Shown: piece by piece, positions 4,241 through 20,088 of the stretch
How positions within the stretch are numbered: the stretch's first letter is position 1
Layout of the letters: every line of letters begins with the position of its first letter
Made by a program: the position numbers and the translations under genes
Origin: a virus
Taxonomy: Duplodnaviria > Caudoviricetes
Strand: one strand, 5' to 3'
DNA: 29,165 nt
IMG/VR virus record: IMGVR_UViG_3300012667_000067
Span: 1-29,165 of that record
The notes under the pieces: model-generated
The model's database searches: none
What the model was told of the DNA's origin: nothing
Seen by the model: the letters and a program-made list of their open reading frames with translations, nothing else

Positions 4241-4248
4241 TAAATTTG
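4241..4248 (+). promoter_or_regulatory. Bacteroidota sigma-A -7 element TAAATTTG
   Basis: Exact TAnnTTTG in the intergenic gap, ending 4 nt before ATG 4253. Confidence 0.6.
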
Positions 4249-11254: not shown

Positions 11255-11503
11255 ATGATTAAAAATTATATTTGGCACTTATTAAACGTTAAAAGCCCTA
11301 TTAACTCCGGCGTAGCGATCGGGTTTAAAGCTTTTTTAATGATGTGCTTATTTGCAATGGCCGACATATTTACGGGCCTATTTGGTAAGGACTTAGCCGT
11401 TTCTAGTATGATCTACGGATCTTTTACTAGCGTAGTTTTCGCAGGGTTTTTTAAGGAACTATACGAAAACTCTAAAGGGAATAAAAACTTAAACAATGAA
11501 TAA
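11255..11503 (+). CDS. Putative holin (2 TM)
   Basis: 82 aa with two hydrophobic segments and a charged C-terminus, upstream of the endolysin. Confidence 0.55.
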   Translation: MIKNYIWHLLNVKSPINSGVAIGFKAFLMMCLFAMADIFTGLFGKDLAVSSMIYGSFTSVVFAGFFKELYENSKGNKNLNNE

Positions 11504-11585
11504 AAGAGAAAAGATAGCTTTAGCCGTTGGATTCATTTTTTGGATCGTAGCTTTAAGCTATTTTATCGGTCAAATGTTAAAATAA
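11496..11585 (+). CDS. 29-aa single-TM peptide (not in ORF track)
   Basis: MNKREKIALAVGFIFWIVALSYFIGQMLK; fills the gap between holin and lysin; AAACAATG start. Confidence 0.6.
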   Translation: MNKREKIALAVGFIFWIVALSYFIGQMLK

Positions 11586-11592
11586 TTAACTT

Positions 11593-12060
11593 ATGAAACT
11601 TAGCGAACACTTAGCCCTATCGGAGGTAATCCGTAGCGAAAGCGCAAAAAGAAACGGTATTAGCAATATGCCAACGCCCGAACATATCGAGAACTTTAAG
11701 CTATTGGCTGAAAAGGTTTTCGAGCCTATTAGAATGAATTTTAGATGTCCGATCCATATTTCTAGCGGTTACAGGTCTAAGGAATTGAACGCTTGTATTG
11801 GGGGAAGTTTGACTTCGCAGCATTGCCAAGGGGAGGCGATCGATATAGATATGGATGGTACTCCTCACGGCGTAACTAATAAAATGGTTTTCGACTTTAT
11901 TAAAAGTAGCCTAGAGTTCGATCAATTAATTTGGGAATTTGGTACGGATCAAAATCCGGATTGGGTTCATTGCTCTTACGAGTCTACAGGTAAGCAAAGA
12001 AAGCAAGTATTAAAAGCTAAAAGAGTAGCGGGTAAAACCGTCTACGAGCCTTATAAATAA
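11593..12060 (+). CDS. Endolysin, peptidase M15 family Zn peptidase
   Basis: SSGYRS..LN..IGGS..SQH..GEAID and WVH.S motifs. Confidence 0.9.
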   Translation: MKLSEHLALSEVIRSESAKRNGISNMPTPEHIENFKLLAEKVFEPIRMNFRCPIHISSGYRSKELNACIGGSLTSQHCQGEAIDIDMDGTPHGVTNKMVFDFIKSSLEFDQLIWEFGTDQNPDWVHCSYESTGKQRKQVLKAKRVAGKTVYEPYK

Positions 12061-12663
12061 ATGATCCCGCGCCCTGCTATTGAGTTAATTATTAAGTTCG
12101 AAGTAGGGAACAGGGCCTTTTATTCTAAATTCCTAGAGCGTCCGACATATAGAAACGAGGAGCAGGGGATTATAATAGGAATAGGCTACGACCTAGCTAC
12201 GGTATACAAGGCGCAATTATTGTGGGATTGGGGGGAGAATATTAACCCTAACTTTTTCCCGCTCTTATTTCGCGTCCTAGGGCTTAAAGGACACGCAGCT
12301 AGGCAGATGCTAGGATCGGAACTGCAGAAGGTAAATATACCGTTCTTAAATGCCTACGAGGTATTCGCAAAAAGGGCGATCCCTAGGGCTTATTTAATGA
12401 CTAAGCATATCTACCCAAACTTGGACGATCTATCGCCGGAAGTTAAAGGAGCCTTGGTTTCTCTAGTATTCTGCAGGGGTAATAGCCTAGAAGGCGATTC
12501 TAGGGAGGAAATGCGGGAAATAGTACAATTAGCAGCCGAGAAGGATTACGCGGGAATAGCGGAAGCGATAGAAAGGTCCAAGCGCCATTTTGAGGTTAAG
12601 GGACTAGACGAACAGGTATTAAGGCGCGAAGCGGAAGCGGATCTAATTTGGAATAGCTTATAA
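12061..12663 (+). CDS. Lysozyme-fold (GH24/pesticin C-terminal-like) protein
   Basis: LIIKFEVG..IGIGYDL..ALVSLVF.RG..RREAEADL pattern. Confidence 0.75.
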   Translation: MIPRPAIELIIKFEVGNRAFYSKFLERPTYRNEEQGIIIGIGYDLATVYKAQLLWDWGENINPNFFPLLFRVLGLKGHAARQMLGSELQKVNIPFLNAYEVFAKRAIPRAYLMTKHIYPNLDDLSPEVKGALVSLVFCRGNSLEGDSREEMREIVQLAAEKDYAGIAEAIERSKRHFEVKGLDEQVLRREAEADLIWNSL

Positions 12664-12721
12664 ATATCTTCATAACGTTTAGGTTTAAACGTCCGGCCTC
12701 CGTTTCTACGGGGGCTTTTTT
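12664..12721 (+). ncRNA. Candidate antisense sRNA (3'UTR-derived) complementary to early start codons
   Basis: TCTTCATAACGTTTA (12667-12681) is complementary over 10-13 nt to five gene starts and is followed directly by an intrinsic terminator; the 5' end is uncertain. Confidence 0.4.
12695..12721 (+). terminator. Rho-independent terminator ending the tail/lysis transcript
   Basis: GCCTCCGT-TTCT-ACGGGGGC hairpin followed by T6. Confidence 0.85.
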
Positions 12722-12773
12722 ATGGTATAAAGTGGGTTTGTCCGGTTTTTTGTCCGGACAATCTTTAGACATT

Positions 12774-12809
12774 TTAACCTATTTAACAAGTTTTAACAAG
12801 TCCTTAACA
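12774..12809 (+). repeat. Four helically phased TTAAC(A/C) direct repeats
   Basis: TTAAC at 12774, 12783, 12793 and 12804. Confidence 0.7.
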
Positions 12810-12828
12810 AAATAATTATAAAAATACT

Positions 12829-12860
12829 TTTGTTTATATTGTATACAATGTATACCTTCG
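12829..12860 (+). promoter_or_regulatory. Early promoter (-33 TTTG, -7 TACCTTCG) with palindromic operator ATTGTATACAAT in the spacer
   Basis: TTTG 12829-32, 20-nt spacer, TACCTTCG 12853-60; perfect palindrome at 12838-12849. Confidence 0.65.
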
Positions 12861-12900
12861 ATAAACAATCGAGAGACACTCGTAAAACTGTTTTAACGTT

Positions 12901-13116
12901 ATGAAGGAACTAATAAAAACAATGAAAGAAACTATGGGCCGTTTATACTGCCTAAAAACAGGTTGGGACTATGATAACCTAACCTTGATCCAATCGTCTT
13001 TAATTAACGCTTACTGTACGCAGTTATTCATTAATAACGGAGACGAAGAAAAAGCCCTACAAATCTTACAGGACCAAGTTAATTCGTTCACTTTTAAATT
13101 TACTGAAAATGCGTAA
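12901..13116 (+). CDS. Hypothetical early protein
   Basis: First ORF after the early promoter; AACGTTATG start. Confidence 0.7.
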   Translation: MKELIKTMKETMGRLYCLKTGWDYDNLTLIQSSLINAYCTQLFINNGDEEKALQILQDQVNSFTFKFTENA

Positions 13117-13213
13117 CCAAACACAATACGAAAAGGATTCAGTATCTACTAAATGGGGTATTATCATTTTTGCCGCTTGCTTAATCCTAGGGATGCTAGC
13201 GGATAACCTTTAA
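13109..13213 (+). CDS. 34-aa single-TM peptide (not in ORF track)
   Basis: MRNQTQYEKDSVSTKWGIIIFAACLILGMLADNL; fills the gap between neighbouring genes. Confidence 0.6.
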   Translation: MRNQTQYEKDSVSTKWGIIIFAACLILGMLADNL

Positions 13214-13222
13214 ATCTACGTT

Positions 13223-13480
13223 ATGAATTACCTAGAAAAAATGGCGCACGAATTATGGCTTAATCATTTTAATTGCCAATTAATTACAAACGATTTAAGT
13301 AGCGAATTAGCTTATAAGTCTGCTTTAATTAGTGTAGAATTAGCTATATCCTTGGTTTATTCAGTTGATCATAAAAATAAAGCCGTTTATAATGAAGAAA
13401 CTAAGTATTGGGATTATGAGCAATGCAAAGAGTTAAAAGACTTATTATTAGTAAAACACATATTAAATCAAAAATTATGA
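13223..13480 (+). CDS. Hypothetical protein (AT-rich)
   Basis: 85 aa ORF with ACGTTATG start. Confidence 0.65.
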   Translation: MNYLEKMAHELWLNHFNCQLITNDLSSELAYKSALISVELAISLVYSVDHKNKAVYNEETKYWDYEQCKELKDLLLVKHILNQKL

Positions 13481-13653: not shown

Positions 13654-13869
13654 ATGCAAAAGGAAGTACTAGCGGTAAGGATCTTACCTACAATTAAATC
13701 TAAACTTTTAACCGAAGCCGACCTAGGTAATACTACTATTTCTAGGTTAGTTTCTAAAATCTTAATTAATCATTATGCAAAAGACGAAAATACTATCGAG
13801 AATAAACAAGTTAGAAAGGCTATTAAATCTAGCAGTAGCAAGGGAAGCAATACTAAGGGAAGACCTTAA
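13654..13869 (+). CDS. Ribbon-helix-helix (Arc/CopG-like) DNA-binding protein
   Basis: EVLAVRI strand, helix, then GNTTISRLVSKIL helix. Confidence 0.6.
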   Translation: MQKEVLAVRILPTIKSKLLTEADLGNTTISRLVSKILINHYAKDENTIENKQVRKAIKSSSSKGSNTKGRP

Positions 13870-14059
13870 CAGGTGGCGCGCTTGCGGTCCTTACGACGTT
13901 ACTAGGTTATTTTCACACGAAAACGATATTCTTTTAAAGATTGCTAGGATTAACGCAATTCAACGTAGAATAGTTAACTCGTTTAGGGACCAACTTTATT
14001 TAATGTTTAAAGAGACCGAATTTAAACCCTTAGAAAATGAGCCTACGAAATACAATTAG
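13775..14059 (+). CDS. Hypothetical coiled-coil protein
   Basis: 94 aa amphipathic ORF with an ATTATG start. Confidence 0.55.
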   Translation: MQKTKILSRINKLERLLNLAVAREAILREDLNRWRACGPYDVTRLFSHENDILLKIARINAIQRRIVNSFRDQLYLMFKETEFKPLENEPTKYN

Positions 14060-14518: not shown

Positions 14519-14534
14519 CACAAATTTAAACGTT

Positions 14535-15272
14535 ATGAACAACCAAATCGAAAAGACACAAAGTACAATTAGCTTTAGCAAAGAGCAGCTAGAGTTAATT
14601 AAAACACAAATCGCACCCGAAGCGACTAACGACGAACTGCAGTTATTTTTATATACTGCGAAGCGTTCCGGCTTAGATCCATTGGCGCGCCAAATCTACT
14701 GCATACATAGAAGCGTTAAACTACCTAACGGGCAGTACGGTAAAAAAATGACCGTCCAAACTTCTATCGACGGGTTCCGCGTAATCGCTGAAAGGTCCGG
14801 ATTATACGGAGGACAAGGGGAGCCTATCTTCGAGTACGACGATAACGGTAATCCTATTTCCTGTAAAGTATCGGTATTCAAATTTAGAGGCGACGTTAGA
14901 TACGAAGCGGCCGTAGGAGTAGCGTTCTTTAGTGAATACGCACAAACGGACCGAAACGGTAATCTTACCGGATTATGGGCTACTAAAAAAAGAATAATGT
15001 TACAAAAGGTCGCAGAATGTTTGGCGTTACGCAAAGCGTTTTCGCAGGATCTAAGCGGGCTTTATACTTCGGAAGAAATGCCGCCGCCGGAAGATACGAT
15101 CGTAGCTGCTTCTTACATTAAGTCGCACGATAACCAAGAAGACCTAGAGTTAGCTATAGATAGCTGCGAAACTAAGAAGGAACTTAAAGCCCTTTACGAT
15201 CTTAACGAAGCTATGGTTAACGACTTGCAAATGGCCCCTTTATTTACCGAACGCAAAAAAACTCTTAAGTAA
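14535..15272 (+). CDS. bet: Redbeta/RecT-family single-strand annealing protein
   Basis: ATNDELQLFL...GLDPLARQIY..QTSIDGFRVIAERSG.Y.G..W.....ML.KVAE..ALRKAF...LSGLYTSEEM. Confidence 0.9.
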   Translation: MNNQIEKTQSTISFSKEQLELIKTQIAPEATNDELQLFLYTAKRSGLDPLARQIYCIHRSVKLPNGQYGKKMTVQTSIDGFRVIAERSGLYGGQGEPIFEYDDNGNPISCKVSVFKFRGDVRYEAAVGVAFFSEYAQTDRNGNLTGLWATKKRIMLQKVAECLALRKAFSQDLSGLYTSEEMPPPEDTIVAASYIKSHDNQEDLELAIDSCETKKELKALYDLNEAMVNDLQMAPLFTERKKTLK

Positions 15273-16380: not shown

Positions 16381-16406
16381 TTATTTATTAACAAAACTTT
16401 AACGTT

Positions 16407-16721
16407 ATGAAGACGCTATTTGACGAACTAGAGACCGATCAATTTAAATGGTTTAAGGAGTATCACAAAGAGAATCCGCAAATCTATGAGTACTTTAAAA
16501 GATATACTTTTAAGTCAATAGAGCGCGGGTTTAAGAACTTATCCGCCGAGTTTATTTTTAATATTATTCGTTGGGAAACTCCGGTAAAAGCAAACGGAGA
16601 CGACTTTAAGGTTAACAATAACGCCAAGCCTTTTTACTCCCGTTTATTTATGAAGGAGCATCCCCAATACGAGGGATTCTTTAGAAAAAGATCGAGTAAG
16701 GCCGACGAAGTTTATATTTAA
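16407..16721 (+). CDS. Phage hypothetical protein
   Basis: 104 aa with NPQIY..IRWE..FKVNNN..FF motifs; AACGTTATG start. Confidence 0.7.
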   Translation: MKTLFDELETDQFKWFKEYHKENPQIYEYFKRYTFKSIERGFKNLSAEFIFNIIRWETPVKANGDDFKVNNNAKPFYSRLFMKEHPQYEGFFRKRSSKADEVYI

Positions 16722-19824: not shown

Positions 19825-19842
19825 ACAATAAAAACTAACGTT

Positions 19843-20088
19843 ATGAATTTCGGACAAGCACTACAAGAATTAAAAAAGGGGAACAAAGCAGCCCGTTTAG
19901 GGTGGAATGGTAAAGGTATTTTTATCGAACTTCAAGTTCCGGATGAAAATAGCAAAATGACTAGCCCGTACATTTTTATAGATACTACAGGCTTACAAAC
20001 TAATAACGAAATGGCCCCTAAAAGCCGCGTACCTTGGTTAGCTTCTCAAACTGATATGTTAGCCGAAGATTGGGAAATATTAGCGTAA
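19843..20088 (+). CDS. DUF2829 / Tad2-like anti-defence sponge protein
   Basis: MNFGQAL..LK.G....R.GWNGKG.F...PWLASQTDMLAEDW family signature. Confidence 0.85.
   Translation: MNFGQALQELKKGNKAARLGWNGKGIFIELQVPDENSKMTSPYIFIDTTGLQTNNEMAPKSRVPWLASQTDMLAEDWEILA

Follow-up and report, generated by a model that had tools for sequence, protein, structure and literature searches.

The window analysed here is the complete 29,165-bp virus record IMGVR_UViG_3300012667_000067, which carries direct terminal repeats. Its annotated genes lie on the + strand, in the order tail, lysis cassette, early/replication region (bet/recT, ssb, replication initiator, ninG), terminase, portal and head. A ParB-like gene adjoins the terminase genes. 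The phage likely infects a freshwater member of the Bacteroidota, as inferred from the scarcity of AGGAG or GGAGG elements (present at 1 of the 46 starts of the window), from the TAnnTTTG boxes that precede several genes, and from a sister-clade bet gene on a 5.4-kb contig (L321) binned with a Bacteroidota MAG, binning being an indication rather than proof. Exact TAnnTTTG boxes also occur close upstream of late genes, at 4241, 9354, 19453, 21412, 24476 and 26446, which suggests several internal host-type promoters. Among the GenBank phage matches listed, there was no DNA relative of 11500–13200, and none of the best 40 Bet matches listed exceeded 40% identity.

The genes bordering the lysis–early junction are an endolysin of the peptidase M15 type (11593..12060, +; PF08291, E 3e-17; phrog_894) and a 200-aa ORF (12061..12663, +), the 3' UTR of which contains the element studied here. 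The original prediction took this second ORF for the last lysis gene, a label that we drop, as its product has no Pfam or PHROG match and the identified endolysin is the gene before it. Downstream lies a likely early promoter region (12825..12860, +), with an exact TAnnTTTG box at 12825 and a one-mismatch box at 12853; the latter is exact in four relatives (L004, L006, L007 and L009). The stretch upstream of the early genes also contains direct and inverted TTGTCCGG repeats, TTAACA repeats and a near-palindrome (12737–12761, 12782–12811 and 12842–12855); these repeats, spanning 12737–12855 and largely kept in clade A, the clade of this phage, are possible operators or a possible origin.

Within the 3' UTR, the seed CTTCATAACGTT (12668..12679, +) is antisense to a tag found at start codons. 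Folding predicts a single-stranded leader or toehold at 12656..12674 (+) that includes the anti-AUG letters UUCAUA, with 5-mer unpaired probabilities of 0.95–0.96 across 12664–12674. The 3' half of the seed (12675–12681) is predicted to be hidden in a 7-bp hairpin (12675..12692, +), which folds identically in three linker haplotypes; alignment A4 holds one one-sided and zero two-sided changes, and structural covariation within clade A is uninformative. Next comes an intrinsic-terminator-like hairpin with a GTTTCTAC loop and a T-run (12695..12721, +; stem 12695–12716, T-run 12716–12721), so that the pre-terminator location originally proposed for the seed is borne out, and the fold z for 12656–12722 is –3.9. 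Rfam gave no match at gathering score anywhere in the window, and the seven matches obtained for 12560–12900 at E values up to 10 are at chance level, with neither C4 nor CI among them. A GTTTCTAC-like loop (12702–12709 in the window) recurs in the junction terminators of clades C, E, G and J despite differing stems, as well as in the unrelated contigs L360, L403 and L428; it may bind a protein, or it may mark a terminator type common in Bacteroidota.

The core of the tag, ACGTTATGAA, occurs five times on the + strand (12896, 13218, 14530, 16402 and 19838), each copy lying across the ATG of an ORF, and once on the – strand, at 12669–12678, in the 3' UTR before the terminator. Our count on both strands thus agrees with the original prediction, which listed these five copies, noticed no others on the + strand and placed the reverse complement at 12669–12678. 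Shuffled sequences contained a mean of 0.04 copies, and none of 100 shuffles reached six. The tagged genes are the first early gene, 12901 (71 aa, no family; tag 12896..12905, +), gene 13223 (85 aa; missing here in L009; tag 13218..13227, +), the bet/recT recombinase gene 14535 (RecT/Bet, PF03837; tag 14530..14539, +), gene 16407 (104 aa, phrog_13625, function unknown; tag 16402..16411, +) and the Tad2-like gene 19843 (PF11195; tag 19838..19847, +). The labels given earlier to bet and the Tad2-like gene hold, and an Atlas search with gene 16407 returned hypothetical viral clusters only. The Tad2-like gene (19843–20088) is an insert that separates the small from the large terminase gene; in relatives these two are joined directly. 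It and 13223 are the two tagged inserts that relatives lack. The element shares its strand with its targets, at distances of 0.2–7.2 kb.

To the RNA that the element would specify, these five genes are the best predicted partners of all 47 starts (ranks 1–5), with interaction energies of –8.0 to –12.0 kcal/mol when the opening costs of both partners are counted. The remaining 42 starts average –2.3 kcal/mol, and the best of them reaches –5.5 kcal/mol. Perfect pairing extends over 12 nt for gene 12901 (–10.3 kcal/mol), 10 nt for 13223 (–8.9), 13 nt for bet (–12.0), 13 nt for 16407 (–11.8) and 11 nt for the Tad2-like gene (–8.0), the lengths that had been read off before; with G-U pairs included, the bet duplex has 18 consecutive pairs. 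A sixth gene, 9379, had been put forward on the strength of a 13/14 match. The match exists, but its mismatch is central and the predicted energy is –3.1 kcal/mol, outside the top 14 of 47, and we reject this gene as a target.

The base at position –3 is G in all five tagged starts and A in 26 of the 41 others. According to the available text of PMC6847099, A at –3 is the favoured base and a positive determinant in Flavobacterium. The tag is not the optimal Bacteroidota start context.

Conservation was assessed in clade A by searching with bet, which yielded 10 loci. The seed is kept in all six loci that reach the junction, while the adjacent linker varies. In five clade-A loci (85 kb), ACGTTATG is found at 20 ORF starts and at one non-start position, and the genes that bear it at their start belong to at least nine non-homologous families. 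The same string is absent from clade B (0 in 271 kb) and clade E (0 in 160 kb); conversely, CCAATATG occurs at 29 starts in clade B and at none in clade A. We also searched metagenomes blind to the seed, using the terminator arm alone as the query. Among 87 matches, 20 were terminator-like; the seven of these with the seed have two to five tagged starts, and the 13 without it have none. In one contig (L010:1390–2200), a truncated bet is followed by the junction region in inverted orientation, which reflects either misassembly or a real inversion.

To compare lineages without presetting a location, we scanned for any 10-mer antisense to at least two starts. In clades A and B, the best such 10-mer lies 47–53 nt ahead of the terminator T-run, and the seeds differ. 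For clade B, the Bet protein of which is about 60% identical, the scan gave TTCATATTGG, matching starts with CCAATATGAA. The clade B junction seed, TCATATTGG, is kept in 64 of the 66 loci that reach the junction (80 loci in total, 14 of which stop short of it), and the other two carry variants. Analogous pairs are TTCATAGTTT with AAACTATGAA in clade E, ATGTGATTTGA with TCAAATCACAT in clade C1, ATTGTGATTTGA with TCAAATCACAAT in clade C2 and TTTCATAGTGTG with CACACTATGAAA in clade J, and there are others besides. Orthologous bet starts in these three clades are each predicted to pair best with the RNA of their own clade (–9.2 kcal/mol in A, –9.8 in B and –9.7 in E), whereas cross-pairings among A, B and E range from 0 to –5.0 kcal/mol. 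The F2 element is promiscuous, scoring –9.4 kcal/mol on the clade-A bet and –8.1 on its own. In clade C, all 7 C1 loci but none of the 4 C2 loci have the start TCAAATCAC-ATG. Three orthologous gene pairs gain an A together with the seed. Counter-examples exist: L222 retains a C2-type start beside a C1 seed, and in L040 a seed base has changed while the tags have not.

An element-by-genome matrix was computed for those loci that had long flanks and in which a junction terminator had been detected. They number 66 and fall into 14 groups, with only 14 loci taken from clade B, and all first and second ATGs served as the start set. Elements match 3.6 per 100 starts in their own genomes versus 0.7 per 100 across groups. 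In 11 of the 14 groups (all but F1, C2 and C3) the row maximum falls on the own genome, as it does in all nine groups with distinct seeds, the latter an outcome of 1 in 362,880 permutations. Such values overstate independence and are descriptive, because the groups were drawn after the seeds had been seen and share common descent. Under a stricter gene caller, which dropped many true starts (7 clade-A matches remained, versus 20 with all ATGs), the own genome is the row maximum in 10 of 14 groups. The co-variation of seed and tag in related phages that was anticipated for a functional pair is therefore found, and it includes bet orthologues in three clades. U-rich UTRs and A-rich starts do produce a cross-clade background, the 0.7 matches per 100 starts noted above, and one may ask whether AT-rich composition and a generic start context could generate the whole pattern by chance. 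The shuffles, the cross-clade controls and the restriction of each tag to its clade refute this explanation, to which we assign a negligible probability. The element is not universal: the junction terminator went undetected by our script in 30 of 65 clade-C loci, and about 70 of 80 loci found through the endolysin showed none. Two contigs (L109:850–905 and L117:1970–2025) have a similar element after a structural gene, ~10 kb from the early genes, that matches a recombinase start.

Matches are also confined in position and orientation. With one locus per group, the element matches 25 of the 365 starts in the 6 kb that follow it, none of the 299 upstream starts and 2 of the 241 starts farther downstream. 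As a further control, 23 other intergenic terminators gave 0 matches among 729 starts with the stricter gene caller. Matches are antisense in 140 cases and same-strand in five. This fixed orientation, antisense at the junction and sense at the starts, makes it improbable that the motif is a DNA site such as an operator, a recombination site or a cassette-insertion site. Such a site would fit the palindromic AACGTT, the inverted block in the junction region of L010 and the absence of the tagged genes 13223 and 19843 from relatives; yet the motif keeps a fixed register with the ATG, the search for a tyrosine integrase was negative, and the copy in clades B, E and F is bracketed by a promoter and a terminator. 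We regard a DNA site as quite unlikely.

Slightly less likely still, in our view, is that the reverse copy marks the start or relic of a leftward gene, such as a repressor or integrase since lost. In temperate phages this junction is often home to leftward genes, and a minus-strand ORF of 25 aa does start at the reverse-copy ATG; its peptide resembles the start of a TIR domain, which we take to be a coincidence. But this ORF lacks conservation: its length is 25 aa in the window, 7 aa in L004, 6 aa in clade B and, in a different frame, 42 aa in L009. The elements of clades C, G, H, I and K mostly lack TCAT, and together these two observations make a leftward gene improbable. The seed, moreover, stays fixed while the adjacent linker changes.

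How would an RNA arise from this element? The Bacteroidota promoter consensus TAnnTTTG is placed at –12 to –5 in the accessible part of PMC9723704. A weak promoter element, TAATTTGG, had been proposed at 12644, but the box there (12644..12651, +) has one mismatch, lies inside coding sequence and is not distinguishable from chance, since one-mismatch –7 boxes number 250 on the + strand of the window (8.6 per kb). A sigma-70 promoter scan likewise stayed at background level. This phage and clade C have no separate promoter, the element standing directly behind a stop codon, and clade A has no exact box for the element's 5' end. Given the lack of a good box, the copy in this phage is probably derived from the 3' UTR of gene 12061. 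Because exact boxes also stand before or in late genes (9354, 11267 and 19453), transcription through the element may extend beyond the late phase.

In clades B, E and F the arrangement differs, with two tandem units (also at L022:8240–8395). A box-less 3'-UTR unit comes first; behind it stand a perfect TAnnTTTG box, a seed with TCATA and another terminator. The exact box precedes the second unit in all 25 distinct sequences (30 loci from B, E and F), whereas first units have 1 match in 85. On sequence grounds, this second unit is built like a small RNA gene, and a box occupying –12 to –5 would put the clade-B seed at the very 5' end of the RNA. The phage studied here shares TTAGGTTTA with the clade B second unit and the GTTTCTAC loop with clades E, G and J. 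A model built from the B, E and F units, comprising three base pairs only, missed the element of this phage under default filters and, with the filters off, returned it as the top match, though a weak one (E 0.13). In clade B, the opening codons of bet are complementary to the first unit. Stand-alone units consisting of a box, TTCATA and a terminator also occur in other phages (L452, L460, L484, L488, L514 and L518); no 10-nt match to them was present in the fetched flanks, and their targets may be distant or in the host.

Nine RNA runs were listed, all as assembled contigs, and the contig sets of five of them (X1, X2, X3, X5 and X8) were inspected; the relatives in them were mostly 85–99% identical; ends, strand and level are not readable from assembled contigs. 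One contig covers the seed, from a run only guessed to be RNA, and there was no stand-alone short contig.

Comparison of sequences across lineages indicates that the feature is real, conserved and co-varying with its predicted targets. Because mirror and tag change together across lineages, one short RNA likely switches the tagged genes off together. Our preferred interpretation, which we consider probable, is that a trans-acting antisense RNA represses the tagged early genes as transcription of the lysis cassette builds up. This RNA of ~55–65 nt would either form the 3' terminus of a transcript likely running through the lysis genes or be processed out of it, and an RNA with that origin would accumulate with late transcription. 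The open UUCAUA toehold is predicted to nucleate on the AUG; the small hairpin would then open, giving an 11–18-bp duplex over about –13 to +6 of the mRNA. In a host that does not use Shine-Dalgarno pairing, such a duplex could occlude initiation, as FopS does in Bacteroides. As it accumulated, the RNA would turn down the recombination, early and anti-defence genes, and a new gene could enter the regulon simply by bearing the tag. For the seed-plus-terminator RNA of the original prediction, copy counts, pairing ranks, co-variation and tag specificity all speak in favour; its promoter and gene 9379 have fallen away, and folding predicts pairing for half of the seed.

Timing could differ from that of our preferred interpretation. 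The same RNA made early or constantly might provide immunity, superinfection exclusion or a copy-number brake in an integrase-free carrier state, an alternative that we hold possible but rather doubtful. It would suit the stand-alone unit behind a perfect host-type box in sister clades B, E and F, and the clade-specific seeds would make exclusion clade-specific. It would also suit the results of our repressor searches, which covered this phage and four relatives with near-complete genomes: a tyrosine integrase was found in none of the five, and an HTH_3 protein is missing in four, including this phage. In this phage and in clade C, however, there is no separate promoter and the element directly follows a stop codon, and nothing in the genome points to a carrier state, the ParB-like gene lying beside the terminase genes. 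The earlier statement that the phage has no CI repressor stands as far as the HTH_3 and integrase searches of this genome go, though a protein regulator could have escaped recognition. One early ORF (13654–13869; 71 aa), overlapping 13775–14059, has a weak CcdA-like match (E 0.026); by eye we take its product to be like a ribbon-helix-helix regulator, and it could be such an unrecognised protein.

It is also conceivable, though unlikely, that the RNA pairs mainly with host mRNAs or other phages, or that pairing stabilises or activates its targets. UUCAUA is able to pair with many AUGAA starts, and foreign elements reach –6 to –7.5 kcal/mol on the five targets of this phage. Against this, the tags are confined to early and inserted genes, with none upstream, and a duplex over the AUG blocks initiation in Bacteroides, as described for FopS in the text available from PMC11697453.

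Repression by the RNA, as we favour it, would have its closest counterpart in the FopS/GibS family of Bacteroides thetaiotaomicron. These are RNAs of about 65–70 nt with a 5' seed that pairs near the start codons of several mRNAs and blocks initiation; most are made from canonical sigma promoters, and one member is 3'-UTR-derived (PMC11697453, accessible text). Multi-target start-codon pairing, a Bacteroidota host and sRNA size would be common to both. FopS and GibS differ in being host-encoded and, as far as that text goes, in targeting polysaccharide loci, with neither a phage self-regulon nor a lineage tag. Kinship finds no backing in Rfam, which returned no match for the element, the comparison with FopS being one by description only.

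Phages are known to repress their own genes with antisense RNA, the P4 CI RNA being one case. The C4 RNA of P1/P7 represses by pairing elsewhere in its transcript and controls one operon, icd-ant, under a protein repressor (PMC8198154, in part). C4 and CI resemble the proposed RNA in that a phage RNA pairs with a site elsewhere in a transcript to repress phage genes. C4 differs, in what that source covers, in that the tag of the present phage is common to five separate genes, its seed lies over the AUG and no repressor/antirepressor was found: icd or ant genes are absent from the 46 ORFs searched against Pfam and the 28 searched against PHROG, and the element has no C4 or CI match in Rfam. Other phage antisense RNAs, namely sar of P22, OOP and aQ of lambda and STnc6030 of BTP1, tune development or exclude superinfection (PMC12197685, available text). 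Those of the sar/OOP type are described there as cis-encoded against one gene, unlike the multi-target element here, which is on the same strand as its targets rather than opposite to them. Our literature search, to which most subscription journals and supplements were closed, gave no description of such an element in Bacteroidota phages. The element is a candidate for a previously undescribed form of base-pairing sRNA control.

If the interpretation is correct, a single RNA and a co-evolving start-codon tag would constitute a programmable gene set for a phage without a recognisable repressor, in distinction to known phage antisense RNAs, which act on one gene or operon. It would represent a new way to time or silence the early programme, the anti-defence (Tad2-like) gene included, and the natural, near-orthogonal seed/tag pairs could serve for translation control in Bacteroidota. 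More speculatively, an RNA master repressor that reads a lineage-specific start-codon barcode may stand in for the CI-type protein in Bacteroidota phages at large; genes would join by acquiring the barcode, and drift of seed and barcode would create immunity groups. We put this forward tentatively, as a possible extension that may also explain the start-associated sequences (SAS) of cluster K mycobacteriophages, and the system offers a direct test of what phage start-associated sequences do.

SAS is a motif shared by many non-structural gene starts, with a role described as unknown (PMC3203893; PMC11373665, both in part), and four genomes have a lone copy in the opposite orientation (PMC3203893). 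It differs from the tag in host phylum and sequence, in lying 3–7 bp upstream of the ATG and in including a Shine-Dalgarno core, and the accessible text proposes no RNA partner for the reverse copy. The 13-bp SAS motif GGGATAGGAGCCC stands upstream of the ATG, whereas the motif of the present phage spans it. In Adephagia (JF704105) we counted 16 forward copies and one reverse copy of SAS. The reverse copy, between genes 92 and 93, makes up the loop (10 nt, CCUCCUAUCC) of a long hairpin predicted there (L565:33662–33715, about 58,660–58,715); the fold z of the 151-nt stretch is only –1.8, and such a loop would suit an anti-SAS RNA.
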